64,000 nt of DNA, taken from Bacilli bacterium (lineage in GTDB: Bacteria; Bacillota_I; Bacilli_A; RF39; UBA660). Shown in pieces: positions 306-64,000 of the stretch (positions are counted from its first letter, which is position 1; each line of letters opens with the position of its first letter). The DNA is taken from positions 45,741 to 109,740 of the forward strand of contig JAFXZI010000014.1 of assembly GCA_017541325.1 (NCBI GenBank). The letters run 5' to 3'. The position numbers were made by a program, and so were the translations under genes. The notes beneath the pieces are model-generated. The model had not been told where the DNA came from and made no database searches. It worked only from the letters and a program-made list of their open reading frames with translations.

Positions 306-338
306 AAATACCTCCTACTTTGCTTTTAATATTATTTA

Positions 339-1328
339 TTAATCATAATAAATACCCGCAGTTTTAAAATAATATTTTCCATCTTTATATGCAAATATAT
401 ATTTTATTTGTGTTGGAAATTCATCAAGATATGCTCCTTTTTTAGTATCAGGAGCTTTACAATTTCCATATTTATTTGTTTCAGAATTATATTCTTTTAC
501 ATAATAATTAGTAGTTATTGTAAGTAAATTATACTCTTGTTTAATATTATCAATTGAATCATCGCACATATCATAACCGCCAAGTACCAACGTTAAATCT
601 GGTGGTTGATAGTGATTTGCTTCATAAAACAATTTTTTATCCTTGTTATATAGTACACCATATATACCAAATTCTTTCACTTCATCATTTAGTTTTTCAT
701 CAAACATTTTTAAATATTGCTTTTCAACATTTTCAAGCGTTGCATATCTAGTTTTAGTATCTATTTTATACTTACAAGGGCCTCCCCATTCACAATTAGT
801 AACAGATAAATCTGATTCATAACATGAACTCATATGTTGTGCAAGTCCATCTTTATTTAATTGTTCTAAATCCTTACAAGCCATTAAATCTTTTTCAAAA
901 CTATTTCTAACAGCATATTCAAGTTTTAATGCTTCTAAATCAGTTTTATCTCCCAAACCAACTTCTTCAACTAATACATGTAGATAATGATCATAATTCT
1001 TAATTCTATATAATTCAAATAATTCTTTAACTTCTTTACTATCCTTAGTTAGTTTTGGTTGTTGAACAGTTTTATCAATCCAATCTTCTATTTTTATTTT
1101 TTTATTATCATTAGATTCTTTTACTGTTTTTTCTTCTGTCTTTTTGTTGTCTTTTGAAGAGTTGTCTGCTGTTTGAGTATCTTTTTTTTCTACTTTAACA
1201 GTATCTTTATTAGAATTCTCTTTTGATTTAGTATTGTTATACGATGTCTTATTATTTATTGTAGTTCCACAAATAATTGAAACAACACCAATTAAAATTA
1301 TAACAATTCCAATTATGCGTTTCATCAT
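339..1328 (-). CDS. Hypothetical secreted/membrane-anchored protein: N-terminal signal-anchor, Lys/Asp/Thr-rich linker, Cys-containing C-terminal domain
   Basis: 329-aa ORF. Hydrophobic N-terminus (IIGIVIILIGVVSIICG) followed by a low-complexity K/E/D/T segment. 33-nt gap to the N-rich CDS downstream. Confidence 0.5.
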   Translation of the reverse strand: MMKRIIGIVIILIGVVSIICGTTINNKTSYNNTKSKENSNKDTVKVEKKDTQTADNSSKDNKKTEEKTVKESNDNKKIKIEDWIDKTVQQPKLTKDSKEVKELFELYRIKNYDHYLHVLVEEVGLGDKTDLEALKLEYAVRNSFEKDLMACKDLEQLNKDGLAQHMSSCYESDLSVTNCEWGGPCKYKIDTKTRYATLENVEKQYLKMFDEKLNDEVKEFGIYGVLYNKDKKLFYEANHYQPPDLTLVLGGYDMCDDSIDNIKQEYNLLTITTNYYVKEYNSETNKYGNCKAPDTKKGAYLDEFPTQIKYIFAYKDGKYYFKTAGIYYD

Positions 1329-1389
1329 ATCACCCTATAATAATCATATCAAAAAATCAAAAAAAGAGATAAATTTTTATTATCTCTTT

Positions 1390-2763: not shown

Positions 2764-2770
2764 AATATCC

Positions 2771-2898
2771 TCCTAAAAACAAAAACTTCTAGAATTTGTA
2801 AGGACGATTTATCGCGGTTCCACCTTACTTATTCTAGAAGAATCTCTCTTTGTATATAGCTCTGGGATTCCACCCCGTCATCGCTTCAATAACTAAAG
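2771..2898 (-). promoter_or_regulatory. T-box riboswitch leader (glycine-type, short form) with intrinsic terminator
   Basis: Minus-strand RNA contains AAGUAAGGUGGAACCGCG (rev-comp of cgcggttccacc at 2813..2824), matching the T-box consensus AAUUAGGGUGGNACCGCG. Terminator arms CUUCUAGAAU/AUUCUAGAAG (2786..2795 / 2831..2840) followed by UUUUUGUUUUU. Leader about 130-160 nt, as in stem-II-less glyQS T-boxes. Confidence 0.85.
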
Positions 2899-2928
2899 TT
2901 TAATACTTTTTTTTATTTTTGTAAAGAA

Positions 2929-4983
2929 TTAGTGATCAACTACTTCGATATTACCGGCTTGATGTTCAATTGTTCCTGTTTTAAATTTTTGATTTGCAAT
3001 TTGAGCACCTGTAAATGAAGTCCAGTTCCACTCTTTTCCAGTATTATTAATGATTTTAACTAAATAAGGGTCATTTGTTGCTGTTTTTGCAAAAATACCA
3101 TTATTCATACTAGTAACATATTTTGGAATAGATACAGTACCATATGTTCTCCAAGTATATGTACCTGATAATTTAGTTATTTTAGTCCCGTCAGGGGCAG
3201 TTTCTGGAATTACAAGAGTTCCTGTTGTTCCTGGATTAGGTCCAACGAAATCTGATATTTCATTGTATAAAATAGTACCATTTGTAACTTTAAACATAAA
3301 TCCGTTATGAATATATTCACTATTATTTGTAATAACGTTATGATAAAAAGTATTAGTATCAATTGTTAAATTTGGTACATCTGATATAGGAGGCAAGTTT
3401 AATGTTTTAATATTACAACTTAAGAATGCTGCTCCTGAAATTTTTGTTAATGTTACCCCTTCTTTTTTTGCTGGTATAGTTAAAGCATAATTAGCAACTC
3501 TTCCTCCACCATAACTAACAATAGTTGTATAATCCCATTTTCCCTTTCCAGGATTATCTGGATCGGCTATTCTTTTATAGAAAATACCATCTATTCCATC
3601 CATTTTATTTTGAACAAATGCTCCTCCTCCAATTGATGTAACAGTATCAGGAATATCAATAGATGATAATTGATTTCCTCTAAATGCAGTTGAACCAATT
3701 GTTTTTAAATTTGCAGGTAATTTAACACTTGTTAAACTATTACTATAAAAAGCAGAACTATTAATTGTTTCTACTGAATCTGGAATAGTAACAGATCCTT
3801 TTAATCCAGCACTTTGGAAAGCACTACTATCTATAGTTTTTAATTGATATCCGTTTTTCCATTCAGGAATTACTATATTTTCTCTTGTTTCTCCACCATA
3901 ACCTACAATTGTAGTAAAGTCTTTTGATCCATTAGACTTTGTTTTATAAATAAATGCATTAGCATCAGTAAAATTATTGTTTGAGAATGCTGCTCCACCG
4001 ATTGTTGCATTACTATTTATATCGATATCTGATAAACAGTTACCTTGGAACGCATATGATCCAATACTCTTTAATGAAGCCGGAAGAGTTACATTACAAA
4101 TCTTATTACTTGCAAATCCATATGAACCTATTTTTTCTAGTCCTTCAGGAAGAATTAATTGTTGAATTTTTGAATTATAAAAACCAAAATCTTCAATTGT
4201 TTTAACTGACTTAGATAGTTTTACGCTTTTTAAATTATTTCCTTGGAATGCTGCATATCCAATTGTAACAATTCCATCATATGAACGAACACTTGTTATT
4301 CCTTTACCTTTAAACGCCCTATTTCCTATTCGTGTTACTTTTAAATTACCTATTTTAGAAGGTATATCAACATCTAATCCACAACTAGTATTATAGTTAG
4401 TTATTGTTATTGTCTCATCTTCATTTTCTTCCCACTCATAACAATCTTGTCCTTGTTCTAAGGTTATATTTACTGTAGGTTCTGTTTTTTCTTTATTTCC
4501 TTCTTCATCGACAATAACTATATTATCTCTTCCACCTATTGGGAAAGAATTATTAATAGTTTTATCATCAGTTACATAAATTTTACCAATTGATAAATCT
4601 TTTTCTGCAGTTAAATCAATCTTATGTCCTGTTTCATCTACACTTACCCAGTAATATTTAAATTCTTTTTTATTATTAATTACTACTACTACATAAGCCT
4701 CAACCCATTTTCCATAAGGACTATCTTTAACAGCACCATTATCTGTTTCTAGATTCTCTATATTATAATAATATGTAGTATTAGTATCTCTTGCTATTAA
4801 ATCATTTTTAGAAAGCATATTTGCACATATTTGAATGTACTCTCTAGCAGTATTAATATATAGTTTTCTTTTACTCTTGTCTATATAGTTTGATATTCCA
4901 AGAATTGCAATCATTCCCATTATACCTAATAATACAACTACTGCAATTATTTCTATTAAAGTAAATCCTTTTTGATTTTTCAT
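2929..4983 (-). CDS. Type IV pilin-like (class III signal) protein fused to a BspA-type leucine-rich-repeat adhesin domain
   Basis: N-terminus MKNQKG^FTLIEIIAVVVLLGIMGMI is the canonical prepilin/pseudopilin cleavage-methylation motif (G-1, F+1, E+5). AGGTGA RBS favours the second ATG at 4983 over 4992. The C-terminal half has about 20-residue repeats (IGSYAFQGNCLSDIDI, IGSTAFRGNQLSSIDIP) typical of BspA/Treponema-type LRRs. Confidence 0.7.
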   Translation of the reverse strand: MKNQKGFTLIEIIAVVVLLGIMGMIAILGISNYIDKSKRKLYINTAREYIQICANMLSKNDLIARDTNTTYYYNIENLETDNGAVKDSPYGKWVEAYVVVVINNKKEFKYYWVSVDETGHKIDLTAEKDLSIGKIYVTDDKTINNSFPIGGRDNIVIVDEEGNKEKTEPTVNITLEQGQDCYEWEENEDETITITNYNTSCGLDVDIPSKIGNLKVTRIGNRAFKGKGITSVRSYDGIVTIGYAAFQGNNLKSVKLSKSVKTIEDFGFYNSKIQQLILPEGLEKIGSYGFASNKICNVTLPASLKSIGSYAFQGNCLSDIDINSNATIGGAAFSNNNFTDANAFIYKTKSNGSKDFTTIVGYGGETRENIVIPEWKNGYQLKTIDSSAFQSAGLKGSVTIPDSVETINSSAFYSNSLTSVKLPANLKTIGSTAFRGNQLSSIDIPDTVTSIGGGAFVQNKMDGIDGIFYKRIADPDNPGKGKWDYTTIVSYGGGRVANYALTIPAKKEGVTLTKISGAAFLSCNIKTLNLPPISDVPNLTIDTNTFYHNVITNNSEYIHNGFMFKVTNGTILYNEISDFVGPNPGTTGTLVIPETAPDGTKITKLSGTYTWRTYGTVSIPKYVTSMNNGIFAKTATNDPYLVKIINNTGKEWNWTSFTGAQIANQKFKTGTIEHQAGNIEVVDH

Positions 4984-5073
4984 AATATTCACCTACTTTA
5001 ATAATAACATTTTGTATAGTAAAAAAGAGATATTTTTATTGTCTCTTTTATCTATTTTACTTAAAAATGTAAA

Positions 5074-5961
5074 TTATTTAGTTATTTTTCTCTTTTTCTT
5101 TAAAGTATTCTTAGCTTTTGTAGATTTAATATGATTTCCAATAATCTCAGATATATCAGAAACAGTTACAAATGCACTATTATCTTCATCATTTATAATT
5201 CGTCTAAGTTCTGGAAGTTCTAGTCTTGTTAAAACTACATAAATAATATCTTTTTTACCACTTATTAATCCAGAACCTTTCATAATAGTACAAGTTCTTC
5301 CAAGTCTTTCATAGATTAGATTAGATATTTTATCAGAATGATCTGTAATTATCATTATTTCTTTAGCTTGAGTTAATCCTTCACTTACAAAGTCTATTAC
5401 TTTAAAAGTAATTACATATGTAAGAAGTGAATATAAAGCTCTATCTATCCCAAAAATAAATCCAGCAGTTCCAAATATAATCATATTAAATAGTAATACT
5501 ATTTGCCCTACTGAAAAAGAAGTATTTTTACTAATTACAATAGCAACTGATTCAGTACCATCTACACATCCACCAGAACGAATTACAAGTCCAACACCAA
5601 TTCCAAGTAAAGCTCCTCCATAAACAAGTCCTAAAAGAGGATCTCCTGTAAGAGCTGGACTAGATGCGAACATTTCAAGTAGTAGTGAAAATAAAGCAAT
5701 ACTATATAATGCTTTTAATAAGAATTGTTTTCCTAAATTTTTATATCCAACATAAATAAATGGAATATTAATAAGAAATACAAGTAAACCTAAATTAATT
5801 TTAGATAGTTTATGAATAATGATAGAAATACCAGCTACTCCTCCATCTAAAATAGAATTAGGTATTAAGAACTCTTGTAGAGCAAAAGCTGCTAATAAAG
5901 AACCTAAAGTCATTCCTAAAAAATCGATAAATAGTTTTATTTCTTTACTTTTGTATTTCAT
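5074..5961 (-). CDS. YitT-family membrane protein (DUF161 + DUF2179)
   Basis: 295 aa. LGMTLGSLLAAFALQEFLIPNSILDGGVAGISIII N-terminal motif typical of YitT/YqfU. Polytopic. Confidence 0.75.
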   Translation of the reverse strand: MKYKSKEIKLFIDFLGMTLGSLLAAFALQEFLIPNSILDGGVAGISIIIHKLSKINLGLLVFLINIPFIYVGYKNLGKQFLLKALYSIALFSLLLEMFASSPALTGDPLLGLVYGGALLGIGVGLVIRSGGCVDGTESVAIVISKNTSFSVGQIVLLFNMIIFGTAGFIFGIDRALYSLLTYVITFKVIDFVSEGLTQAKEIMIITDHSDKISNLIYERLGRTCTIMKGSGLISGKKDIIYVVLTRLELPELRRIINDEDNSAFVTVSDISEIIGNHIKSTKAKNTLKKKRKITK

Positions 5962-5998
5962 ACCATCACCTATTATTAATTATATCACAAAATATGCT

Positions 5999-7144
5999 TT
6001 ATTCACTTTTTTCTCTATTAAATTTTTCTTCTACTAATCTTACTGGTAATGATTTATCTTTTAATATTGAATCTATAGATTGATCATTATGAATATTATA
6101 AATAATTTGTGCAATTAATTTTGAACAATCTGCAATATGTAACCATTTAGCTTTTTTATATTCTTCTGGAATATAAGATAAGTTTGTTGTATAAAGTCCA
6201 TTAAATTTACCAGCATTATAGTATTCTTCAAATTTATCTATTCCTTTTGTAAATAATGCATATGTAGTAGCAAGATAAATATATTTAACACCTAATTTAT
6301 TTAATTCTTCTATTATATCGAACATAGAGTTACCAGAAGAAATCATATCATCAGAAACAATTGCTGTATATCCATCTAAATCTTTCATACCACTATAATC
6401 ATGAGCAATAATTGGATATTTACCATCAACTAAATTATTATAATCTCTTTGTTTATAAAAGCTTCCTGCTTCACGAGTAATCTTTTTAGAATTAAATGAG
6501 TTTAAATAGACATTACGTCTACCAACAGCACCATTATCAGGAGCTACAAAGACTATTTTTTTTAATCTATTCATACTTAAATCATTAATCATTTTTTCAA
6601 GTATTTGATTTGTAGGAAAGAAGTTATCAAATTCCATATTATGAATAGCATGTTCTACTCCTTGATCATGTGCATCAAAAGTAATAAAACTCTTTACTCT
6701 ACTCATCATATCTAGTTCATGAAGCATCATACCACAAGCTAGATTTTCTCTTGTATTTCTTCTATGTTGTCTACCTGCATATAAAAGTGGCATAACTACA
6801 TTAATACTTTTAGCATGACAATTACATGCTCCTATACCATCTTTTAATTGTTGCATTAAGTCATTAGGACTCGTATGATTAATAAATCCATGCATTTTGT
6901 ATTCTAAAGAGTAATTACCAATATCTGTTAACATAAACATATCTTTTCCACGAACAGTTTCATTTATTTCTACTTTCAAATGCCCATCTTCAAAATAGTT
7001 TTGTTTAATCGGAATTAAAAAAGTATTTTTTTCTTTATCAAGATTATACATTTCTAATAAATGTTCATCTACTTTTTTCCCTAATTCTTCTGCACTATCA
7101 AATACCATTAGTCTTAAATTAATTGTTTCATTTTGTTTCTTCAT
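5999..7144 (-). CDS. Ribose-phosphate pyrophosphokinase family protein (Prs paralog, with insertions)
   Basis: 381 aa. Type I PRTase loop IVSDDMISSGNS. FxDGE..V.I.E.VRGKDMF N-domain pattern. RQHRR and TFDAHDQG motifs paralleling the Prs RQDRK / DLHA regions. AAGGAG RBS. Confidence 0.6.
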   Translation of the reverse strand: MKKQNETINLRLMVFDSAEELGKKVDEHLLEMYNLDKEKNTFLIPIKQNYFEDGHLKVEINETVRGKDMFMLTDIGNYSLEYKMHGFINHTSPNDLMQQLKDGIGACNCHAKSINVVMPLLYAGRQHRRNTRENLACGMMLHELDMMSRVKSFITFDAHDQGVEHAIHNMEFDNFFPTNQILEKMINDLSMNRLKKIVFVAPDNGAVGRRNVYLNSFNSKKITREAGSFYKQRDYNNLVDGKYPIIAHDYSGMKDLDGYTAIVSDDMISSGNSMFDIIEELNKLGVKYIYLATTYALFTKGIDKFEEYYNAGKFNGLYTTNLSYIPEEYKKAKWLHIADCSKLIAQIIYNIHNDQSIDSILKDKSLPVRLVEEKFNREKSE

Positions 7145-7160
7145 CTTCTTCTCCTTTTCT

Positions 7161-7193
7161 ACATAAAAAAGAGTAAGCTAAAAACTTACTCTT
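7161..7193 (-). terminator. Hairpin (9-bp stem AAGAGTAAG/CTTACTCTT) plus U-run between the flippase gene and the prs-like gene, ending 16 nt before the prs-like start codon
   Basis: Perfect inverted repeat at 7169..7177 / 7185..7193; minus-strand RNA is followed by UUUUAUGU. Could be a terminator for the upstream gene or an attenuator-type leader element. Confidence 0.5.
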
Positions 7194-7284
7194 TGTTTAT
7201 ATTTAAATTACTACATAAATTGGATTTGTTAAACATATTACCATCTCCATTTTAAGTATATCATAAGAAATAAAAAAAAGAATA

Positions 7285-8823
7285 TTAACTTATTCTTTTT
7301 CTTTTAAATATTTTTCTAATTATACTCTTCATTAAATCTAAAAAGTATTTAAATTCCTCAGTATTATGAAATAGTATAAAGAATATTAAATTAGGAATTA
7401 ATACACACATTAGACACTTAAATATAAATATTAATAATACTGGTCCAGTAAGTAAACTAAGTAAATAATACATTATATAGGCTAAAGCAATAGTAAAGAT
7501 CATTCTTAGAATATATTCCATATAATATTTAGAAACACTTACTTTAAACCCATCTTTATAAAGAATAAATACTTCTATCCAGAAAGGAAGTGTAAAATAA
7601 CTAATTAAAGTTCCCAAAAATACTCCAAGTACTCCTAATTTTATAGATAGAATAATAGAAATACCAATATTAGCTATTGCTTCATAAATAGTTATATATC
7701 TATCTTTATAAAAGATTCCACTAGCTTCTCTAAATGAATTAACTACTTTTCTCATTACTGTAAAATAGAATATTAATACTAAAACTAAGACTATTTCTAT
7801 ATTAAATATATATTCTTTTCCCGCTATGATTTCAATAAAATCATTAAATAATACCATTAAACATATTGAACAGAAAAAAGCAATCCAGAAAGTAGCTAAA
7901 TTAGCTTTGTTAAATAATTCTATTCTTCTTTTTTCATCTTGGTCTACCCAAAAGTTTCCTACTCCAGGAGTAAGAGATGTATATACTTGATTAATTATCA
8001 TATATAGTGCATACATAACTAAGTAATAGTTAGAATAAAAACCAACCGCTTCCAAACTAACAAATTTAGATATTACAAGGTTATCAGTAGAATTAACTGC
8101 TACTCCACCTACTTTTTTTAGCATTAATGCTTTAGTGTTTTTAATTATTTCTTTAGTATCTTTCTTATCTAATTTCTTAACATTCTTTTCTTTTAAGAAT
8201 GGATACATTTTATCAGCTTTTTTAGATAATGCCCAGTTAGAAATAATAGTTAAGATAACTTGAATAATTAAATATCCAAAATAATCATGTGACATAAATA
8301 AATATATTATTTGTAATACATTCATTAATATATAAAAACTATATCTATAAATAGTTTCTATATGTCTATTTTGATCTGCTAAAATAAGATTTCTCTTATA
8401 TGAAAAGAAATAAGATACTGCAGTATTTGTTACAAATAACATATATATTATTTCTATGCCTTCGATATCAGGCATATCTTTAATAAAAAATGATAAAAAT
8501 GGTGTTAAAAGAAATCCGATTGCAAATATAACTACACCTATTACAGAATATACATGTTTAAATAAAAGCATTAAGGATTTTATCTTTTCATTATCATGTT
8601 TTGCAAGTGGTCTATATAAAGAATAAGTTATTGCAGTTCCAACACCAAGTTCAGTTAATGATAAAATCGTTAAGATATTTGAGAACAATCCATTTAATCC
8701 CAAATAAGTACTATTTAATACTCTAATAAAAACAATACGGACAATAAAACTAGCTATAATACCTAATGTTTGTCCGATAAGTGACCAATATACATTTCTA
8801 ACCATATTATTTGTTCTAGACAT
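7285..8823 (-). CDS. Polysaccharide biosynthesis protein / MOP-superfamily oligosaccharide flippase (Wzx/MurJ-like)
   Basis: 512 aa with about 14 TM segments. N-terminal motif WSLIGQTLGIIASFIVRIVFIRVLNSTYLGLNGLFSNILTI typical of PST-family flippases. Confidence 0.75.
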   Translation of the reverse strand: MSRTNNMVRNVYWSLIGQTLGIIASFIVRIVFIRVLNSTYLGLNGLFSNILTILSLTELGVGTAITYSLYRPLAKHDNEKIKSLMLLFKHVYSVIGVVIFAIGFLLTPFLSFFIKDMPDIEGIEIIYMLFVTNTAVSYFFSYKRNLILADQNRHIETIYRYSFYILMNVLQIIYLFMSHDYFGYLIIQVILTIISNWALSKKADKMYPFLKEKNVKKLDKKDTKEIIKNTKALMLKKVGGVAVNSTDNLVISKFVSLEAVGFYSNYYLVMYALYMIINQVYTSLTPGVGNFWVDQDEKRRIELFNKANLATFWIAFFCSICLMVLFNDFIEIIAGKEYIFNIEIVLVLVLIFYFTVMRKVVNSFREASGIFYKDRYITIYEAIANIGISIILSIKLGVLGVFLGTLISYFTLPFWIEVFILYKDGFKVSVSKYYMEYILRMIFTIALAYIMYYLLSLLTGPVLLIFIFKCLMCVLIPNLIFFILFHNTEEFKYFLDLMKSIIRKIFKRKRIS

Positions 8824-8906
8824 ATCGACACCTCAAAGAAATTATATCATTTCCATATATTTTCTACAATTAGCAATAAAAAAATAGACATTTGTTGGAC
8901 AAATGT

Positions 8907-10646
8907 CTAAATTTCGTTATCTCTTTTCTTTTTTTCTTCTTCTTCAAGTTTTGTATAAGCTATTTTACCTATTAAAGTTTTAGGTAATTTATCTCTAAAT
9001 TCATATTCATGAGGCCATGAATAACGAGCTAAGTTTCTTTCACATAATTCTTTAATTGAATCTAGTATTTTATCATTTTTAGGAACTCCATCTTTTAAAA
9101 CAATAAACGCTTTTGCAACTTGAACTTTATATGGATGAGGTACTCCAATAACACAAGCACGTAATACATCAGGATGTGATTCAATAATACCTTCAATATA
9201 TTGTGGATAAAGATTATATCCAGATGATACTATCATTCTTTTTAATCTATTCTTAAAGTAAACAAATCCTTCATCATCCATTGAACCCATATCTCCGGTA
9301 TGAAGCCAAATCCTTCCTTCTTTATCTGGTTTTAATACTTTATTTGTTTGTTCTGGATCTTTTAAATATCCTTGCATGACAGATGGTCCACAAATAGCTA
9401 TTTCTCCTTCTTTTCCATGCTTTACTTCTCTATTTGTACCATGTTTAACTATTTTATAAAGTGTTCCAGGATAGGGAATTCCAATAGAACCAGCACGATA
9501 ATCATAATATGGAGTTAAGCAACTAGCACCACTACTTTCTGTAAGTCCATATCCTTCTCTTACTTGAATATTTACTGCACCATGTTCATGTAAGAAGTCA
9601 TCTACTTTTTTCTTTAAAGAAATAGATAAAGTATCTCCTCCAGAAATAAGTAATTTTAAGAAAGATAAATCCATTTGATTTATTTCTTCATTTTTTAAGA
9701 ACGCTTCATATAAAGTTGGTACTCCAATAATAATATTGGGTTTATATTTCTTTAATAAATTATCAAATTCTTTAGCATCAAATTGTGGTATTAAAATACT
9801 AGTACCACCAAAATATTGAACTGTATGAATACATACTCCAAGTCCAAAAGCATGGAATATTGGAAGTATTGCTAAGCACTTATCTCCTGCTTCTAATTTT
9901 CCACAAGCATAGAATGATTGAAGAGCACCACTATTAAAATTATAATTTGATAACATAATTCCTTTAGGGTCTCCAGTTGTACCACCACTATATAGTACAA
10001 CAGCAGTTTCATCTCCATCAAAATCATCTTTAATTTCACCCCAATATCTTAAAGATAATCTCATGAATTTTCTCCATTTTATAATACATTTATTATATTC
10101 AATATTAGTTTTTCTTCCTCTAGTTAATTTATAACCTATCTTTAAAAAGAAAGGCATAGAATCAGCTGGACTTACTAAAATAACATTCTTAACTCTAGTC
10201 TCATCTATAATATGATTAATTTTATTAAATGCAGAATCAAGTGCAACTACATAGTTGCTTTCAGATACATTTAAATAATATTTAATTTCATTTTCAGCTG
10301 AAAGTGGATGAATCATATTAGCTACTGCACCTATTTTATTTAATGCATAAAAACTAATAATAGCTTCAGGAGTATTAGGCATACATATGCTTACATAATC
10401 TCCTTTTTGTACTCCTAATCTTTTAAATGATTTAGCACATTTATTTATTTGTTTTAAAAAAGCTTTAAAAGTTTTCTTTTTACCAAAATAATCATAACTA
10501 ATATAATTTAAATGATCTTGAGCAGATTTTTCTAATAATTTATATATAGAACAGTTAGGATAATCAATATTTAAACTTTCATCATCATAAAACTTTTTCC
10601 ATATTCTTTCATCTGTTTGTTTTTTCAAAGTAATCACTCCAAACAA
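8907..10646 (-). CDS. AMP-binding acyl-CoA synthetase / fatty-acid-CoA ligase family
   Basis: 579 aa. AMP-binding signature LYSGGTTGDPKGIMLS and the C-terminal GYGLTE / ...GD... pattern. Confidence 0.75.
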   Translation of the reverse strand: MFGVITLKKQTDERIWKKFYDDESLNIDYPNCSIYKLLEKSAQDHLNYISYDYFGKKKTFKAFLKQINKCAKSFKRLGVQKGDYVSICMPNTPEAIISFYALNKIGAVANMIHPLSAENEIKYYLNVSESNYVVALDSAFNKINHIIDETRVKNVILVSPADSMPFFLKIGYKLTRGRKTNIEYNKCIIKWRKFMRLSLRYWGEIKDDFDGDETAVVLYSGGTTGDPKGIMLSNYNFNSGALQSFYACGKLEAGDKCLAILPIFHAFGLGVCIHTVQYFGGTSILIPQFDAKEFDNLLKKYKPNIIIGVPTLYEAFLKNEEINQMDLSFLKLLISGGDTLSISLKKKVDDFLHEHGAVNIQVREGYGLTESSGASCLTPYYDYRAGSIGIPYPGTLYKIVKHGTNREVKHGKEGEIAICGPSVMQGYLKDPEQTNKVLKPDKEGRIWLHTGDMGSMDDEGFVYFKNRLKRMIVSSGYNLYPQYIEGIIESHPDVLRACVIGVPHPYKVQVAKAFIVLKDGVPKNDKILDSIKELCERNLARYSWPHEYEFRDKLPKTLIGKIAYTKLEEEEKKKRDNEI

Positions 10647-10707
10647 AAAAATTCCTTATTCATAATAACATATAATACAAAAAAAATAAAGAAAACTTAA
10701 GTTTTCT

Positions 10708-11952
10708 TTATATTACTTCTATTGATTCTTCATATGATTTCTTTATTAGATAAAGCATTATAGAAGATGCTGATACATCAACTGATGCATGTTTTCCATT
10801 CTTTTTTATATATCGATAGAAAATATTACGATATAAATTAATGCTTTCAGTATCTTCTAATTTTAGACCATATAAAGTCTTCATAGATACTAAAGTTTCA
10901 TGTATAATTCTTTCTTTTTTTATTTTTATATTAAATTTCTTATTAAAATCTTTATAGTCGTTTAATATCTTTTCAGCTTGTTTATATGTAACTCCATATA
11001 TAATTGAAAAGAATGAAACCTTAAATAATAATAATTGATTATCATCATTCATAAGTGGGAAATCCTTTAATCTATTAAAAGTATTATTACCAATCTTTTT
11101 ATATCCCTCTACTCCAAACATCATTGTATTAACTAAATCTTTATCAGCATTATAATCTTTTTCTAAATTATCTAAACTATTTAGAATAGGAGGTACATTA
11201 TCAGTATAATATCTATTAATCATTAAATTAAATGAATAATCAATAAGCATTTTTAATTTTTGTTTATCAGTATCTCTTTTCTTTTTATAAATATATTCTT
11301 TATAATAATCCCACAATAATCTTCGGTAATTATTATAATTTAACAAAGAAAGTACAACATCAAAGAATTCATTATCACTTGAATAGTTTTCTAAAACATA
11401 ATTATCCATTAAAGAAACCATTTCTATAAATTTATCATTTCTTGATCTAAGTAGAGCTTTTACTACTTTACCTTTATCATCACTTTTAAAGACATTTAAT
11501 AGTAAATTTCTATATGATTCAACACTAAACTTATCAATTACATCTGCTGATAAAAAGTCAGATACTCTAAATTTATTAGACATAATAAGTTCATCGAATA
11601 ATTTTTCTCTTGTTAAAAAGATATAATCAATATATTCTTTTTCAGTATCATATAATATAAATAAATCTTTTAAATTACCTAAGTCATTTTTTTCTAAACT
11701 CATATAAATATATCTATTATTTCTAAAAGATGAAGAAGTTACTATTTGATAAAACTTACTATATTGATTCATATTTTTAATAGTTAGTATTCTTTTTACT
11801 ATAGAACCTGCAATAGATATAGAATATTCATCTGGGTAGTTATTTAAAGCTAAAAGATCTTGATTCATGATGGAAATAAATTCAGTATCACTTAATGATA
11901 ATGTTTCATCAATAGTTAAAGATAAAACTTTCTTCTTCATAACTTCACCCAC
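10708..11952 (-). CDS. Hypothetical protein (soluble, no recognisable motif)
   Basis: 414-aa ORF with gene-like codon usage; 82 nt downstream of yebC. Confidence 0.4.
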   Translation of the reverse strand: MGEVMKKKVLSLTIDETLSLSDTEFISIMNQDLLALNNYPDEYSISIAGSIVKRILTIKNMNQYSKFYQIVTSSSFRNNRYIYMSLEKNDLGNLKDLFILYDTEKEYIDYIFLTREKLFDELIMSNKFRVSDFLSADVIDKFSVESYRNLLLNVFKSDDKGKVVKALLRSRNDKFIEMVSLMDNYVLENYSSDNEFFDVVLSLLNYNNYRRLLWDYYKEYIYKKKRDTDKQKLKMLIDYSFNLMINRYYTDNVPPILNSLDNLEKDYNADKDLVNTMMFGVEGYKKIGNNTFNRLKDFPLMNDDNQLLLFKVSFFSIIYGVTYKQAEKILNDYKDFNKKFNIKIKKERIIHETLVSMKTLYGLKLEDTESINLYRNIFYRYIKKNGKHASVDVSASSIMLYLIKKSYEESIEVI

Positions 11953-12034
11953 TTTCCTATTCTAAAAATATTTTATCATACAAAAATAAAAAAGAGTATT
12001 TCTACTCTTTAATTATTAAACTAGTTTACACTTA

Positions 12035-12754
12035 TTAAGCATCTAAATTATGATATACATTTTGTACATCATCAATCTCTTCTAAGGCATCAGCTAAAGC
12101 TAATACTTTTTCAGTAGTTTCTTCATCAAGTGTTACAGTATTTTGGGCAATATATGTTATTTCACTTGTTATAAATTCTTCTACTCCAATACCTTCAAGT
12201 GCAGTTTTAACAGCAATAAAGTCTTCTGGAGAAGTATATATTTCATATCCATCATCAGTAGAAACTATATCTTGTGCTCCAGCATCAAGTGCAGTCATCA
12301 TAACTTCATCTTCATCATATTTTGAATCAATCATAATAAAACCTTTACGATCAAACATATATGAAACAGATCCATCTGTACCAAGGTTTCCTCCACGTTT
12401 TGTAAAAGTAGATCTTACAAGCATTGCAGTACGATTACGATTATCTGTTAGGCAATCAACCATGAATGCCACTCCTGATGGACCATATCCCTCATATCTA
12501 ATAGATTCATAGTTTTCACCTTCGTTAGACTTAACTGCTTTATCAATTGCTTTTTGAATATTATCTTTAGGCATATTATTACTTTTAGCTTTTTCAACTA
12601 CTAGTCTTAAATTAGGATTAGTTGCTGGATCTCCATTTGTTCCTTTAGCAGCTACATATAATTCTTTAGCTATCTTTTGGAATATTTTTCCTCTTTCAGC
12701 GTCTAATAATCCTTTTTTTCTGTGAATAGTTGCCCATTTAGAATGTCCACTCAT
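12035..12754 (-). CDS. yebC: YebC/PmpR-family transcriptional regulator
   Basis: 239 aa. MSGHSKWATIHRKKGLLDAERGKIFQKIAKEL N-terminus is diagnostic of YebC. Confidence 0.9.
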   Translation of the reverse strand: MSGHSKWATIHRKKGLLDAERGKIFQKIAKELYVAAKGTNGDPATNPNLRLVVEKAKSNNMPKDNIQKAIDKAVKSNEGENYESIRYEGYGPSGVAFMVDCLTDNRNRTAMLVRSTFTKRGGNLGTDGSVSYMFDRKGFIMIDSKYDEDEVMMTALDAGAQDIVSTDDGYEIYTSPEDFIAVKTALEGIGVEEFITSEITYIAQNTVTLDEETTEKVLALADALEEIDDVQNVYHNLDA

Positions 12755-12764
12755 ATTTTCCTCC

Positions 12765-13460
12765 TTAACTTAGTTTTAAATATTCTATTATTACCGGTGT
12801 AAGAATTAGTAATAATATTAATGGTATATAAAATAATACCGATATAACAGAAACCTTTACAGGTATCTTGTTAATGATTGCTTTTATTTTTAATACTTGT
12901 CTTTCTCTTATATAATCAATTTGAGTATATATATCTTCAATAATATCATTACCTAAAGTATTAGATTCAGATATATGAAGAATAATACTATTTACTTCAT
13001 CTGATGGAATTCTCTCTCTTAATGAATCAAGTGCTTCGTTAAGACCTTTTCCATATTTCATTTCTTCTAAAGTAATTTTAAATTCATTAGATAAATCATT
13101 ATCTACATTTATAGTTGCAACTTCTATAGAATCAACTATGCTTTTTCCTGATTCTAAGGAAAGTGCCATTACTTCAAAGAATTCCATAGCATTATACTCT
13201 AAATTATCTTTTCTTTTATTTATTGGAATCTCAATTAAATAATAAGTAATTAATTTAAAATAAATAAAAGTAATAATCGGACTAAGTAAATATCCCCAAT
13301 CAAGCATATATAATAACATGAAAAATATAATTAGAGAAGAAAAAGTTCTAAAGTTAAGAAAGAATATACTACTCATATTACTTTTTCCCATTTTTAATTT
13401 CTTTTCAAATTCTTCTATTTTTTTTCGAGGATAAATATAATACCAAAATTTATTTTTCAT
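12765..13460 (-). CDS. tadC: Tad pilus platform protein, TadC-like (T2SS-F domain)
   Basis: 231 aa. Membrane protein directly downstream of the TadB-like gene (overlapping) and the CpaF ATPase. Canonical tadZ-tadA-tadB-tadC order. Confidence 0.65.
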   Translation of the reverse strand: MKNKFWYYIYPRKKIEEFEKKLKMGKSNMSSIFFLNFRTFSSLIIFFMLLYMLDWGYLLSPIITFIYFKLITYYLIEIPINKRKDNLEYNAMEFFEVMALSLESGKSIVDSIEVATINVDNDLSNEFKITLEEMKYGKGLNEALDSLRERIPSDEVNSIILHISESNTLGNDIIEDIYTQIDYIRERQVLKIKAIINKIPVKVSVISVLFYIPLILLLILTPVIIEYLKLS

Positions 13461-14446
13461 AATTTCACCTCGATGTATACTATTTTTCTAATTATTATTA
13501 TATAGAATACATATAACATTATTATTAACACAAATGCTAAAAATCCTATGGTTGTAGTAAATAAAGTTACAAAGTATGCTGGATTAAGTAATAATAAGAA
13601 TAAAACTAATATCGGTGGCATTGAAACTAAAATACGATAAACGAATCTAGCTTGAGAAGAATTACTTTTAAGTTCTTCTCTTAATTTTTTTCGTGCTAAT
13701 GCATTTTTTTCAATAGAATCAAATACAGATACAATGTTTCCACCAGTTTTACTTAATACACTAATTGAACTAGTTAAGTATGTAGCTTCAACACTTTTTA
13801 CTCTTTTACTAAATCTTTTAAAAGCTTCTTCTATATCTAATCCAAATTTAATATCTTCACTTATACGTTTAAACTCTATAGATATAGGTCCTTGCATCTC
13901 TTTAGCAACTAAGTCTATAGCTTGAATAATACTTTTTCCTGATTTAAAAGCATTATTCATTATTACTATTGCTTCTGAGATATCATTATCTAGTCTATTA
14001 TCTTCATATTTTCCAAGTACATATAAATAAATATCATATAAGAAGAATCCTGCTAAGAAAGATATTAGAATATTTACGATAGTTAGAACATTTTCTTTAG
14101 CAAATGAATTACATATAAGTAATAATAAACATAATAATCCTATAAATATTTTTCTACTAATGTAATTCATATTTGTAAGAAGTTTTTTACTACCTGAATA
14201 CTTTATATATTTTTTACTATAATCATCAAATACATGAGTTTTTATTAGTCTCCTAGATAGTTTTTCTTCTATATTTCTATAACTACTTACTAAAACATCA
14301 ACAATAGAAAGAGTATCATTATCATAATCTACAGTATAATTATTAAATCTTTTAGTTAATTTATAACTGTTATATGATTTTATAAATAACCATACCAATA
14401 ATAGAATTAAACATATTAACAATAATACTAATAAATATAATTCCAT
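13457..14446 (-). CDS. tadB: Tad pilus platform protein, TadB-like (T2SS-F domain)
   Basis: 329 aa with N-terminal TM, central soluble helical domain and C-terminal TMs. Position immediately after cpaF. Confidence 0.7.
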   Translation of the reverse strand: MELYLLVLLLICLILLLVWLFIKSYNSYKLTKRFNNYTVDYDNDTLSIVDVLVSSYRNIEEKLSRRLIKTHVFDDYSKKYIKYSGSKKLLTNMNYISRKIFIGLLCLLLLICNSFAKENVLTIVNILISFLAGFFLYDIYLYVLGKYEDNRLDNDISEAIVIMNNAFKSGKSIIQAIDLVAKEMQGPISIEFKRISEDIKFGLDIEEAFKRFSKRVKSVEATYLTSSISVLSKTGGNIVSVFDSIEKNALARKKLREELKSNSSQARFVYRILVSMPPILVLFLLLLNPAYFVTLFTTTIGFLAFVLIIMLYVFYIIIIRKIVYIEVKL

Positions 14447-14459
14447 ATTTTACTCCTTT

Positions 14460-15812
14460 CTATTTTTTCTTAGTTGTAGTCTTTTTAGTAATTTTATTTT
14501 TTGCTTTAGATTCAAACATATCTAAAACAATTCCTTTATTTTTAATTTTTTCATATATTTTTGGTACATTTTCATAAAGAATAAATTCTCCGTTTACTTC
14601 TTTATTTTCAGTTATACCATGCTTTAAGAATGCAAATATATCTTCAATAATAATATTTTCTCCATCAAATCCAGTTATTTCTGAAATATTAGTAACTTTT
14701 CTTTTACCATCACTTAATCTTTCAACCGATATTACTATATCAATAGCACTATCTATATACCCTCTAATAGCTTTAATAGGCAATTCTACTTCGCTCATAA
14801 GAATCATTGTTTCAAGTCTATTTAATGCATCTTTTACTCCGTTAGCATGTAGAGTGGTTAATGATCCATCATGACCTGTATTCATCGCTTGTAGCATATC
14901 AAACGCTTCTTTACCACGAACTTCACCAACTATTATTCTATCAGGACGCATACGAAGAGAGTTTCTTACTAAATCTCTTATTGTTATTTCTCCTTCTTTT
15001 TCATAGTTTTCAGTTTTAGTCTCAAGTGAAATAACATGTTCTTGTTTAAGACGAAGTTCAACTGCATCTTCAATAGTAATTATTCTCTCATCATTAGGAA
15101 TAGATCCTGAAAGAACATTTAAAAGTGTTGTTTTACCAGAACCAGTTCCTCCACATATTAAGATATTTAATCTTGCTTTAATACAAGCATCTAAGAAAGT
15201 AGCCATATATGGAGTTAATGTACCATTTCCTATTAAACTATCCATATCTTCAACATCATCTCTAAATTTACGAATAGTTACAACTGGCCCCTTTACTGAT
15301 AATGGTGGAATAATAGCATTTATTCTAGATCCATCAGGAAGACGAGAATCTACCATTGGGTTACTACTATCAATAGTTCTACCTAGTGGTTGAATGATAC
15401 GACTTACTGTTCTTATTATATGTTCATCATTAATAAATGAAACATCATAATCACGAGATATTATACCATCTACTTCAATATATATTTCATCAGGAGAATT
15501 AATCATTATCTCTGTTACATTTTTATCTTTTAATAATTCTGTAATAGGTCCAAATCCATTTAATTCATTATTAATAAGATTTTTTAAATAGTCTCTTTGT
15601 TCATTTAAAAGATCATATTCAACTGCAATTCTATCTATTACTTCTTCTATATTTTCTTCTTCTATTTCATGAGAATCAATTAATTCTTGAATAATCTTAA
15701 TACGTAATTTATCAAGTTCTTCTTTATTCTCAAAAATATCATAATCAGTATTAGTATAAGTATTGGAACTATTATCTTCTAAATTGAACTCTTCCATCCA
15801 ACTATTATTCAT
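14460..15812 (-). CDS. cpaF: Tad/Flp pilus assembly ATPase CpaF/TadA
   Basis: 450 aa. Walker [20 protein letters not shown]. CpaF-specific [60 protein letters not shown]. Confidence 0.9.
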
Positions 15813-16563
15813 AATCTTCCTCCTCTACTAAACTACGTATATTATTACTAAATGTTTCATATTCTTTTTTAGCTTCACCAGTAAATATTTCATTAAAATT
15901 AATTATTTTTTCATCCATAACTAATTCATTATAATTATTTATAAATAATTTATTACTTATAGAATAATCTAATTTTTTAATTACTGTTTTTATATCATAA
16001 ATATCATAATTATCTTTAATATCTCGATATGATTTATTTAGTAGTACAACAACATTATCTACTTTCATATTTTTAGTTATAGAAATGAAACTCTTATTAA
16101 TTTCTAAATTATAAGCATCATCTCCAACTATATCTATAATCTTCATACTTTTATCAAAAAGAAGCATATTAAGTGGGCTTAAAGTATTATTTGTATCAAT
16201 TACTATATATTCATATGAATACATTAATAAATCTAAAACTTGAGACAATGCTTTTACATCTATTTTAGATGATAATCTCATATCTATAGGAGCAGGAATA
16301 AAAGATAAGTTATCTCTTACATAATAAGTATATGGAGTAGAACTTTCATATTTTTTATTTCTTAAATCATCACACATATTATAAATAGTCTTTTTAGGTT
16401 TAATACCTAGTGCAAAAGCAAGATTTCCTCCATATAAATCTAAATCTATTAAAAGAGTACTTTTATTTTTACTTAAAATATCTGCAATCATCATTGAAAC
16501 AGTAGTTTTACCTACTCCACCTTTCATAGATGTTACAGTTATTATCTTAGCTTTATTCTTCAT
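15805..16563 (-). CDS. cpaE: ParA/MinD-family ATPase, CpaE/TadZ-like (ATPase domain only, no N-terminal receiver-like domain)
   Basis: 252 aa. Deviant Walker A TSMKGGVGKTTVS. 8-nt overlap with cpaF. Confidence 0.75.
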   Translation of the reverse strand: MKNKAKIITVTSMKGGVGKTTVSMMIADILSKNKSTLLIDLDLYGGNLAFALGIKPKKTIYNMCDDLRNKKYESSTPYTYYVRDNLSFIPAPIDMRLSSKIDVKALSQVLDLLMYSYEYIVIDTNNTLSPLNMLLFDKSMKIIDIVGDDAYNLEINKSFISITKNMKVDNVVVLLNKSYRDIKDNYDIYDIKTVIKKLDYSISNKLFINNYNELVMDEKIINFNEIFTGEAKKEYETFSNNIRSLVEEEDYE

Positions 16564-17341
16564 CTAACCAACTCCTATTTTTATTATAATTATTTATTAT
16601 ATTATTTTCTGTTAATAACATATCATATGATTTTACATATTTAATATTCTTAGTATTAATAATTAAATCTCCACTTAAATTATCTATTTCTTTTATAAAG
16701 TCTCCATTTAAATATAGACGTGCTTTGTTAGTACCAACTAAATCTATAATATTTCTTTCATTAACTGGACCAATTAAAATATCATTTAAATACAGACTAT
16801 TATTACTTATAAAGAACCTACTATTACCAATCATAAATTGAGTATCATCTAAATTAGTAAAACCAATTTCTAAAGAATAATTTTCTAAATCAAAATTCTT
16901 TATATTAATTACACCATTAATTATGTTGTAGCCTCTACCATCTAAACTATTTACTTCATTATTATTTATTTCAAAATACATTAAAATATTACTTGTATAT
17001 TTTACTTCTTTTTCTGATGTAACAGTATATTTATCCATACCTATAATTTTTCCAAATATAGGTTTTATATCTTTATGCGTTTTTATATAAATAGATCTGT
17101 TTTCTATTTTTACTTCATCTATAACGATATCTTCATCATTTAAACTATATAATAATTTAATATCTTCATTAGAAACATCAATCTTTTTATTTAAACTAGT
17201 TAAAATATCTTTATTAACGTTATCTAAATAATTTTTATTATAAAACATCAAAGATGAATCTATAATAAAAGCTAAAGCAAGTGTAATAATAGGTAGTAAA
17301 AGTAAGAATAATACCAGTACTTGTCCTTTATTATTCTTCAT
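16553..17341 (-). CDS. TadE/TadG-like pseudopilin (larger paralog)
   Basis: 262 aa. N-terminus MKNNKGQVLVLFLLLLPIITLALAFIIDSSL resembles the TadE N-terminal motif. Overlaps cpaE start by 11 nt. Confidence 0.55.
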   Translation of the reverse strand: MKNNKGQVLVLFLLLLPIITLALAFIIDSSLMFYNKNYLDNVNKDILTSLNKKIDVSNEDIKLLYSLNDEDIVIDEVKIENRSIYIKTHKDIKPIFGKIIGMDKYTVTSEKEVKYTSNILMYFEINNNEVNSLDGRGYNIINGVINIKNFDLENYSLEIGFTNLDDTQFMIGNSRFFISNNSLYLNDILIGPVNERNIIDLVGTNKARLYLNGDFIKEIDNLSGDLIINTKNIKYVKSYDMLLTENNIINNYNKNRSWLDEE

Positions 17342-17684
17342 TATTAATAGTCCTTTCTACTTTAACACTATATGGATCTTTTATTATTCTATTAATTCCT
17401 GGAGTCATTAAATCAACATCTTTAGTAATAATAATTGTTGTAATAGAACCCTTATCAGTAATATCAACATTAATATTTTTGTATCCAATACTAGCTAGAT
17501 ATGACTCTATTTCATCATTATCACTATTCTTTTGATATAGTGAAATAACTTCATTACTAACTCCTTCTAATTTACTATTTTCAAGTATTATTCTTCCTAA
17601 ATCTAAAAATGAAAAGAGAAGTAATATTATTACTGGTAATATAAGAACAAATTCAATAAGTGCTTGACCCTTATTATTCTTCAT
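17331..17684 (-). CDS. tadE: TadE-like pseudopilin
   Basis: 117 aa. N-terminus MKNNKG^QALIEFVLILPVIILLLFSFLDLGRI closely matches the TadE consensus (G-x-A-x-x-EF-ALvLPvllll...g). Confidence 0.65.
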   Translation of the reverse strand: MKNNKGQALIEFVLILPVIILLLFSFLDLGRIILENSKLEGVSNEVISLYQKNSDNDEIESYLASIGYKNINVDITDKGSITTIIITKDVDLMTPGINRIIKDPYSVKVERTINNEE

Positions 17685-17746
17685 AATAACACCTTCCCTA
17701 TCTTACATAATTATATCAAACAAATAAAAAAAAGAGAATAACTACT

Positions 17747-18898
17747 TTAAATATCATGAATATTTATTGTAGTATCCTCTTCTGTATCTTTTCTAAATAT
17801 ATCTTCTTTTCTTAACCTATAATTACTAATTATTAACTGCTCTATATTTCTATCTAAAGTTATATAATCTTCTCTATGAAGGGTATTTATTACAAGTCCC
17901 CATATATTAGCTTCTTTAATTGGTTTTGTTTTTAAAGAAAGACTATATATTCCTAAAAGATCCATATTAAATAATTCTTCTAAAGTTCTTTTATCAATAT
18001 CTTTTATTTTTCTTAAAACAAAATCATAACTAGAAGATACAAAATGTTCAAATGCTCCTAGTAATTTATCTTTACCACCAATAGTATTTAATAACTGATT
18101 AATAGTTAAAGCAAAGAAATTATAATTTATCTTTCTAAAAGCTTCATTTTTATATAAAGATTTAGGTAATGAATCACTAGCTGGATCAAAGAAATAAAAT
18201 CCATCTGCTTCATATTTAGAATCTTCTATATAAATTACAGAAACATATTCAGTATCATCTCTTTTAATTGGAACAATATAAACAGGAATATTTAATCTAG
18301 ATAATATTTCTTTAAATAGATTATTAAATCCTAAAGAATTAGTTTTTCTAGTTCTAACTATATCTGGTAATCTATCACTACTAGTTCTATCTAAATCAAG
18401 TAATTTAACAAAATCATATACTTCCTTTACCTTTTCTAGAGGTGACATTTTCTTATCAATAGATAATATTACTATATTAATATATTCCTCCATCATTCTA
18501 TAATTTGGAAGAGTTGTTATTTGATAAGTACCATCTTTATAACTATAAGAAAATTTCCAAGAATCAGGATTTTCATAAGGAAAAGATAATAATTCCTTAA
18601 CTTCATCCGGATTATTATCTCTTAAAACTAATTTTTCGACACTACTATCAGTAATCATAGGAGATAATTCTAAAACATGTTTAATTGTTTCTATATCTCT
18701 AACTTGAACCTGATCTCTAAAAGTAACTTGCGCTACTGTATTTATAGAAAATAGCATTTTCTTTACTTCTTCTAAAGTGTCAGCAGTTATAGGGGTGCTG
18801 AAGTCTAGATTGGTAATTCCAATGTATTTTAGTAGTTCTTCATCAATTGTCCCTAAATCGGATTCGAAACCATTTTCCAACTCAAAACACCCTCTCAT
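17747..18898 (-). CDS. Hypothetical soluble protein, first gene after ddl and immediately upstream of the Tad genes; start codon uncertain (ATG at 18898 lacks an SD; a TTG about 18 nt downstream is preceded by GAGGGTG)
   Basis: 383-aa ORF with no TM. 10-nt gap to ddl and 62-nt gap to tadE. Confidence 0.4.
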   Translation of the reverse strand: MRGCFELENGFESDLGTIDEELLKYIGITNLDFSTPITADTLEEVKKMLFSINTVAQVTFRDQVQVRDIETIKHVLELSPMITDSSVEKLVLRDNNPDEVKELLSFPYENPDSWKFSYSYKDGTYQITTLPNYRMMEEYINIVILSIDKKMSPLEKVKEVYDFVKLLDLDRTSSDRLPDIVRTRKTNSLGFNNLFKEILSRLNIPVYIVPIKRDDTEYVSVIYIEDSKYEADGFYFFDPASDSLPKSLYKNEAFRKINYNFFALTINQLLNTIGGKDKLLGAFEHFVSSSYDFVLRKIKDIDKRTLEELFNMDLLGIYSLSLKTKPIKEANIWGLVINTLHREDYITLDRNIEQLIISNYRLRKEDIFRKDTEEDTTINIHDI

Positions 18899-53121: not shown

Positions 53122-53126
53122 ATAAA

Positions 53127-53203: not shown

Positions 53204-53206
53204 AAC

Positions 53207-53283
<77 letters not shown>

Positions 53284-63978: not shown

Positions 63979-64000
63979 AAGAATATACTGAATATTTATT

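Follow-up and report, generated by a model that had tools for sequence, protein, structure and literature searches.

A probable minimal monoderm Tad pilus operon with a distant flp gene in an uncultured Bacilli bacterium

Minimal Tad systems, which assemble type IVc pili (Tfpc), have been described in monoderm bacteria such as Bifidobacterium breve, where the prepilin peptidase is encoded at another locus, and Micrococcus luteus (PMC6916266). In 2011 Imam et al. catalogued Gram-positive tad operons that contain TadE-like genes yet lack flp (PMC3244431), and TadE, TadF and TadG have been described as modular tip complexes (PMC12075869). An association of DUF192 with tad genes was noted in Bulleidia and Helcococcus in 2025 (PMC12786226), and Tad-like clusters were reported in 2024 from TANB77, another uncultured gut clade with reduced genomes (PMC11680825). 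Pili go unmentioned in the main genomic survey of RF39/RFN20-type lineages (PMC7301438). Here we analyse a tad locus of an uncultured Bacilli bacterium of the RF39 lineage, found in a 64-kb stretch of contig JAFXZI010000014.1 that we refer to as the window. The locus is probably an intact, minimal monoderm Tad (type IVc) pilus assembly operon, with flp encoded separately on the same scaffold.

Gene content of the locus and its closest described relatives

The window has a G+C content of about 25% and carries nearly every gene on the − strand. Six packed − strand open reading frames (ORFs) occupy positions 12765-17684, with junctions that overlap by 4–11 nt or leave a gap of 13 nt. ORF calls and domain matches (Table 1) uphold the original prediction of a tight six-gene monoderm Tad set, tadE1–tadE2–cpaE–cpaF–tadB–tadC. 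The identity of CpaF is as firm as first stated: in addition to its T2SSE domain, the protein matches TIGR03819 with an E-value of 4e-94, under the cut-off of that model, and its closest solved structure is Caulobacter CpaF (8rjf, E 1e-97, residues 52–410). The CpaE-like protein is likewise confirmed as a bare ATPase domain: it has a deviant Walker A motif (KGGVGKT) and no receiver-like N-terminal domain, and the solved structures nearest to it in sequence are those of PF-32, MinD and Soj rather than TadZ. Catalytic motifs are intact in the tad ORFs of the window. We found no RcpA secretin, RcpB, RcpC or TadD in or around the operon; since their absence is expected in a monoderm (PMC6916266), we do not count it against this Tad subtype.

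The gene set is conserved well beyond this organism. About 61 species-level genomes encode a CpaF relative of 60–70% identity. They are metagenome-assembled genomes of uncultured gut 'Bacilli/Tenericutes/Mollicutes', among them Clostridium sp. CAG:710, Firmicutes bacterium CAG:822 and Candidatus Coprosoma; two of the genomes are closed, at 1.20 and 1.34 Mb. The other proteins of the module are 30–50% identical across these species. Loci with enough flanking sequence keep the order tadE–tadE–cpaE–cpaF–tadB–tadC, the exceptions being L003, L021, L050 and L058 (related loci are designated by such labels), where a member is missing, split or unmatched. The CpaE-like ATPase measures 238–275 aa in all loci of the clade, and TadB and TadC are paired in nearly all of those with sufficient downstream sequence.

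How does this set compare with described systems? A close likeness is to B. breve UCC2003, which has Flp, two minor pilins of TadE/F type, an ATPase in the TadZ position, TadA/CpaF, TadB and TadC, lacks a secretin, Rcp and TadD, and encodes its peptidase at another locus (PMC6916266); both organisms are gut commensals. In contrast to B. breve, flp is here unlinked (about 20 kb away), the TadZ-like protein has no receiver-like domain, TadE2 is without Glu5 and bears a lectin-like module, and the host is a low-GC, reduced-genome, uncultured member of Bacillota rather than an actinobacterium. The operon also resembles the 'no Flp_1' group of Imam et al., with TadE-like prepilins and TadA/B/C/Z in an operon without an Flp gene (PMC3244431), except that flp is found elsewhere on the same scaffold. 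Bulleidia extructa PP_925 (Erysipelotrichales; PMC12786226) is another Gram-positive host with a small genome, in which a DUF192 gene consistently accompanies the tad genes and a separate comG-type system is present; however, a single 13-gene operon there takes in tadV, the pilin genes and DUF192, whereas the peptidase and the flp–DUF192 pair are here apart from the machinery. As for the motor, the best solved relative is that of Caulobacter crescentus (8rjf, 9e24), a bifunctional extension and retraction motor, but the Caulobacter system is diderm, with a secretin and CpaE receiver domains.

The original prediction described a locus with neither an flp pilin nor a prepilin peptidase gene. A peptidase encoded elsewhere and an unlinked flp have already been described for Gram-positive Tad systems (PMC6916266, PMC3244431), so that such a configuration is not unusual, and the locus falls within known Tad biology. 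What it adds is modest: the split flp–DUF192 pair, a TadE2 without Glu5 throughout the clade and a species-specific lectin-like module, the last two being mildly new.

An flp gene outside the window and its DUF192 neighbour

A clade-specific Flp profile run against the 64-kb window detected no flp and matched only the N-termini of TadE1 and TadE2. Looking up the leftmost complete gene of the window in public assemblies led us to an ENA scaffold of 169.6 kb, which is 99.98% identical to the window over positions 1–11328. This scaffold carries flp 7.2 kb past the left end of the window, on the same strand as the operon and about 19.9 kb downstream of the tadC stop codon. The encoded Flp is 63 aa long (MRNNKKG/QALVEYVLIIALISVIVIGIINTFGGYIKDSITKTSCSISDKEYVEGKNPGDGYCK), with the cleavage motif G/QALVEY and two conserved cysteines; it matches PF04964 and reaches 120 bits with the clade Flp profile. 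More than 3,800 entries of the protein database belong to this PF04964-bearing family, which NCBI names 'Flp family type IVb pilin'. Because flp lies on the same scaffold, the organism is not Flp-less, and the pilin gap is a window-edge artefact. The absence of flp and of a prepilin peptidase, as first reported, thus holds for the 64 kb analysed but not, where flp is concerned, for the organism. The prediction had also named flp and tadV just outside the window as what would make this a conventional locus: flp is there, and no peptidase was found in about 83 kb of scaffold.

The surroundings of flp suggest a separate gene, transcribed as a monocistronic unit between a promoter and a terminator of its own. 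A TTGACA-17-TAAAAT sequence stands on its 5' side; on its 3' side, a GC-containing hairpin followed by T8 precedes genes for tRNA-Lys and tRNA-Ser. Elsewhere in the clade the gene is often joined to the operon: 28 of the 61 related loci have an flp of 63–89 codons directly upstream of tadE1, encoding a protein of the form …KG/QALVEY…GGYLKD…C…C. A scan of metagenomes for flp gave 50 loci that could be judged, in which flp adjoins tadE1 (33 cases), stands alone among housekeeping genes (16) or has the tad genes 6.5 kb off (1). Orphan copies are found in L135, L115, L161 and L121 (~2650-8950) directly after a cluster of eight genes; with an F-type c-subunit-like protein and two α/β-like ATPase subunits, this cluster, judged by eye, may be an F1-like ATPase operon.

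Could the filament be built of TadE1 instead, with the distant flp unrelated to it or serving another purpose? About half of the tad loci of the clade lack an adjacent flp, and Imam et al. proposed TadE-like structural subunits for such operons (PMC3244431). Yet Flp, TadE1 and TadE2 have a common leader and cleavage motif, the flp-linked loci are otherwise identical in gene set, flp has the predicted signals of a separately expressed pilin gene, and only one Tad machinery was seen. We regard a TadE1 filament as very unlikely: with flp on the same scaffold, the idea of TadE as the major subunit is not needed.

The flp gene has a regular companion. A 97-aa DUF192 gene is transcribed divergently from it, and the pair occupies 18098-18672 of L169, on the same scaffold, 6.8–7.3 kb beyond window position 1. 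In loci where flp adjoins the operon, a DUF192-like gene of about 110 aa faces it across a divergent promoter region. The divergent arrangement is thus kept beside tadE1 in more than 20 species, some 20 kb off in the present organism and as an orphan pair in L125; the pair is also seen in L004–L059. No canonical A24 peptidase gene, in contrast, was seen linked to either locus in the clade. We tentatively propose, as a possibility that we rate well short of even, that the Flp gene has an obligate partner in the DUF192 protein, which is small and cytoplasmic and might be, for instance, a dedicated regulator or a maturation or export factor.

Transcription boundaries and genomic flanks

Upstream of the tad genes lie yqeG, yqeH, an α/β-hydrolase gene, murF, ddl and X383, a gene of 383 codons; tadC is followed by yebC and by a 414-aa gene with no assigned role. 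The original prediction had the tad genes spliced into the ddl–murF cluster, in one transcription unit running on from ddl and X383, and co-expressed with cell-wall synthesis genes. A consensus promoter and terminator scan was uninformative in DNA of 25% GC, as it returned fewer promoter-like sites than shuffled sequences and missed the terminator-like hairpins, that at the end of X383 among them; motif enrichment and a scan for hairpins followed by T-runs took its place. The X383-end hairpin has a folding energy of −21.1 kcal/mol (z −4.0), with 0 of 200 shuffles folding as well, and together with its T8 it is the strongest − strand structure of this kind between 7 and 26 kb (−16.6 kcal/mol in that scan). 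The same scan found no terminator-like structure from tadE1 to yebC.

The window has 13 copies of the extended −10 motif TGnTATAAT, a count no higher than chance. All 13 are on the coding strand, however, and 11 of them fall in intergenic DNA, which makes up 5.4% of the window; each of these 11 stands 15–29 nt ahead of a start codon (− strand positions include 5979, 8841, 17710, 26652, 36963, 43757, 47825, 52948, 57576, 62537 and 63152). Such placement implies very short 5' leaders, as predicted from sequence, and may provide a usable promoter signature for the organism. Among related loci, 37 of 53 have the motif no more than 60 nt ahead of tadE1, and 0 of 54 have it ahead of tadE2; no copy was found upstream of yebC.

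We predict a discrete transcription unit, tadE1–tadE2–cpaE–cpaF–tadB–tadC–yebC, apart from ddl–X383, because a hairpin with T8 ends X383, tadE1 has a predicted promoter of its own, yebC shows no such signal and a further hairpin follows yebC. The first hairpin would mark the close of a murF–ddl–X383 unit, the last is likely the 3' end of the tad–yebC unit, and yebC is probably a housekeeping passenger, the final gene of that unit. Co-transcription with ddl and murF is not the expected mode, because of the conserved tadE1 promoter and the terminator that precedes it. We therefore retain neither the run-on from ddl and X383 nor the co-expression with cell-wall genes; the housekeeping gene apparently co-transcribed is yebC.

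The adjacency to ddl–murF is real, but it is inherited within one sub-clade and not general to the tad module. Both ddl and X383 lie upstream in the closest relatives alone (L001, L166 and L167), and L026 has ddl upstream as well; the flanks differ elsewhere in the clade. About ten related loci have yebC after tadC. In a second sub-clade (L008, L013 and about 25 others) tadC is followed by murC (TIGR01082, 365 bits), and TadB measures about 500 aa as against about 330 aa. The tad module thus borders peptidoglycan genes in two distinct arrangements, which may reflect either chance or an ancestral linkage.

These results bear on the account given by the original prediction, namely a Tad operon truly without Flp and peptidase, set within the essential ddl–murF peptidoglycan operon, co-transcribed with it and hence constitutively expressed with cell-wall synthesis. 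It would explain why the 64-kb window holds neither gene, and it can draw on the position of ddl and X383 directly upstream on the same strand, on the ddl–X383–tad adjacency kept in close relatives and on the murC neighbour of the other sub-clade. We consider it highly improbable all the same: an flp gene exists on the same scaffold just outside the window, X383 ends in a hairpin with T8 and a conserved extended −10 element precedes tadE1, variable cargo is inserted between the two genes in relatives, and the flanks vary across the clade. Moreover, near-all genes of the window share one strand, so that co-orientation is little informative.

In close relatives, 0–4.6 kb of unrelated cargo separates X383 from tadE1, which fits a boundary between transcription units at this point. 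This hotspot is empty in the window. It contains three paralogues of about 179 aa with a hydrophobic AYAAF(S/A)TTL N-terminal signal in L001 (6569-8381), three genes with no assigned role in L166 (11221-13010), and a 911-aa GFTLME pilin with two paralogous genes, also with no assigned role, in L167 (11226-15659).

X383 itself belongs to a narrow family, some 60 proteins in size, in which no Pfam domain is recognised; PF01841 (Transglut_core) occurs in two of its remote relatives. The family alignment has no invariant Cys or His, and no signal peptide or transmembrane segment was found. The core of the AlphaFold2 model is confident, with weak Foldseek matches to transglutaminase 4xz7, cysteine proteases, menin and LapG; the model points to a cytoplasmic protein with a transglutaminase-like fold lacking the catalytic Cys and His. 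We rejected X383 as a Tad component: it has no signal or transmembrane segment, is confined to the closest sub-clade, stands apart from tadE1 because variable cargo and a terminator come in between, and has a predicted fold that is catalytically dead. Two unannotated proteins, encoded at 30588-31526 of the window and at 5283-6329 of L166, have Cys-bearing segments that, judged by eye, resemble transglutaminase or cysteine-protease cores.

Table 1. Genes, predicted signals and other features of the window (a lectin-like module is putative)
Feature	Position	Strand	Remarks
Giant pilin-like protein, 687 aa	2929-4992	−	TIGR02532 above cut-off; leader KGFTLIE; BspA-type leucine-rich repeats
Terminator-like hairpin + T6	11988..12009	−	after yebC; −7.7 kcal/mol
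yebC (YebC/PmpR family)	12035..12754	−	NF001030, 337 bits; starts 10 nt past tadC
tadC, platform protein paralogue	12765..13460	−	231 aa; one T2SSF domain, E 1.5e-11
tadB, platform protein	13457..14446	−	329 aa; one T2SSF domain, E 1.6e-14
cpaF/tadA, motor ATPase	14460..15812	−	450 aa; T2SSE E 3e-64
cpaE/tadZ-position ParA/MinD-type ATPase	15805..16563	−	252 aa; AAA_31, CbiA and ParA domains
tadE2, modular minor pilin	16553..17341	−	262 aa; PF07811 E 1.8e-3, below threshold
Putative lectin-like (ConA/LamG-type jelly-roll) module of TadE2	16625..16987	−	residues ~119–239; Foldseek against PDB
tadE1, TadE-type minor pilin	17331..17684	−	117 aa; PF07811 E 2.6e-9, above cut-off
Predicted extended −10 promoter TGaTATAAT	17710..17718	−	ends 26 nt before tadE1 ATG
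Terminator-like hairpin + T8	17726..17781	−	straddles X383 stop codon
X383, flanking gene	17747..18898	−	383 aa; no Pfam or NCBIfam match
Giant pilin-like protein, 1048 aa	33797-36943	−	TIGR02532 above cut-off; leader GFGFTLIEM

Away from the tad locus, the window contains a T-box leader upstream of hisS–aspS (41590-41770, − strand) and a cluster of three tRNA genes (53048-53283, − strand). To the right of window position 64000, L170 (1-9958) encodes repeated WXG100, DUF4176 and ~505–525-aa proteins beside DUF3137 and LemA, which by its gene content looks like an array of type VII secretion effector/immunity style.

Minor pilins, peptidase and candidate functions

The two TadE-like proteins differ at the fifth residue of the mature pilin. 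TadE1 has the leader MKNNKG/QALIEF, with Glu at +5, and all its homologues in the clade have a KG/QAL(V/I)EF N-terminus. The leader of TadE2, MKNNKG/QVLVLF, has no Glu at +5; throughout the clade the corresponding motif is KG/Q(T/S/V)L(V/I)x(F), in which position +5 is hydrophobic and never Glu. Clustering places TadE2 with the TadE family of the clade. Lack of Glu5 is typical of the first, tip-most subunit in related filaments, as in the GspK-type pseudopilins.

TadE2 is also distinguished by its size. It measures 262 aa here; five close homologues have 259–262 aa and L167 has at least 245 aa, against just 97–136 aa in other loci of the clade; the C-terminal extension is common only to those five homologues and L167. 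In the AlphaFold2 model (predicted local distance difference test score, pLDDT, 83; predicted TM-score, pTM, 0.67), a helix (residues 5–41) is followed by a small α/β pilin head and a β-sandwich (119–239). The best Foldseek matches in the PDB are the lectin-like receptor-binding (HCN) domains of botulinum neurotoxins (E 3e-7), and the second is PilC of Streptococcus sanguinis (7oa7, E 5.5e-7, over 265 aligned columns). The predicted architecture agrees with that of modular pilins: a class III signal peptide, a pilin module and a C-terminal module.

PilC, a modular minor pilin with a lectin module on which the work is cited in PMC12075869, has a matching build, its class III signal and pilin module being followed by a ConA-like β-sandwich at the C-terminus. 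It serves, however, in a pilus of type IVa and shows 10% identity in the alignment, whereas TadE2 is a much smaller minor pilin of a Tad (IVc) system. The TadE/TadF/TadG and KilL/M/N tip complexes of Tad pili (PMC12075869) offer a parallel, being minor pilins encoded beside the machinery that prime assembly and carry variable C-terminal modules at the tip; here, in contrast, there are two minor pilins, no TadG, and a small jelly roll on the protein in the TadF position. Because it lacks Glu5 and appears to bear a lectin-like jelly-roll module, we read TadE2 as a likely bimodular tip pilin with an adhesive module, that is, a tip adhesin.

Which enzyme would process these pilins? Flp, TadE1 and TadE2 all carry the leader NNK(K)G/Q, and the window encodes four prepilin-type substrates: TadE1, TadE2 and two very large GFxxxE proteins (Table 1). 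A peptidase elsewhere in the genome is expected because of these four substrates, as in B. breve (PMC6916266), and a single such enzyme presumably cuts all three pilins. The GxGDxK motif was seen only in tad loci of out-groups (diderm or Caldisericia).

Genes for giant pilin-like proteins occur inside or beside the tad loci of L007, L034, L059, L060 and L167. In L037 (552-3719), as in L043 and L061, a PilB/GspE-type ATPase with a CxxC…CxxC motif lies beside KGFxxxE pilin-like genes about 8 kb from tad. From this gene content, the clade appears to have a second, Com/T4a-like type IV filament system. We considered the giant GFxxxE proteins as substrates of the Tad machine and rejected this as the principal interpretation, as a PilB/GspE-type ATPase adjoins such pilins in the clade.

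For the Tad operon itself, we propose that transcription would start at the extended −10 promoter past the X383 terminator, run from tadE1 to yebC and stop at the hairpin beyond. By analogy with their families, CpaF would form a hexameric motor, and TadB and TadC the membrane platform; the short ParA/MinD-type ATPase may stand in for TadZ/CpaE as organiser. TadE1, with Glu5, and TadE2, without it, would be minor pilins that prime the filament and remain at its tip, where the jelly roll of TadE2 would be displayed, making the tip probably an adhesin for a glycan or surface ligand. The major pilin would be the 63-aa Flp supplied by its separate, distant gene.

Several points weigh against this scheme. 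The CpaE-like ATPase has no specific match to TadZ/CpaE models or structures. The promoter and the terminators are signals read from sequence. The TadE2 model was built from a six-sequence alignment, and its fold matches, with TM-scores of 0.33–0.40, are modest. Searches by the GxGDxK motif and precomputed Pfam annotation gave no A24 prepilin peptidase, whether in the window, along about 83 kb of the scaffold or across roughly 2.1 Mb of related loci. Adhesion and DNA uptake both remain candidate roles for the pilus. Finally, one assembly, ERZ28018745 (L082), has three changes in cpaF within 56 bp, I41N, the nonsense change L44* and D60Y (window-equivalent positions 15691, 15682 and 15635).

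The cpaF changes could represent either a loss-of-function variant, in which case the Tad system may be dispensable in some populations, or an assembly or sequencing error. That the locus is a decaying, non-functional remnant, as the nonsense change and its two missense neighbours might suggest, seems to us extremely improbable. The species is represented in at least 12 contigs from several metagenome assemblies, and four of the five examined share an identical tad region, all six ORFs being intact in the window as in these four; the catalytic motifs are preserved, and the module is kept in about 61 species, complete genomes of 1.2–1.3 Mb included. L083, at 99.3% a 'strain', is identical across the tad region, all its differences lying in murF at the contig end.

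As for function, the pilus might serve chiefly in DNA uptake (competence), as the Flp pili of M. luteus do, and not as an adhesin. Tfpc-dependent transformation is known in monoderms (PMC6916266, PMC4322843), and lineages with small genomes and a tendency to auxotrophy could gain from the uptake of DNA or nucleotides. On the other hand, the separate PilB/GspE-type system of the clade, with its GFxxxE pilins, would be the usual Com-like route, and the lectin-like module of TadE2 points to ligand binding; no linkage to comEA or comEC was noticed in the loci, where no systematic search was made. We hold a primary role in DNA uptake to be unlikely and favour an adhesive Tad pilus.

That a pilus machine should have appeared to lack its pilin through the mere position of a window edge calls for caution in window-based scans. 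The lectin-like module on a TadE2 without Glu5 provides a concrete candidate tip adhesin. The recurrent pairing of flp with DUF192 is a testable lead for a domain with no known function; if the DUF192 protein were indeed an obligate partner of flp, the domain would gain a function and monoderm Tad systems a new component. A complete minimal Tad system has been kept in about 61 species of uncultured gut Bacilli with reduced genomes, which in some measure only 1.2–1.3 Mb. Since B. breve needs its Tad pili for colonisation, this suggests by analogy that the system may be important for life in the gut.

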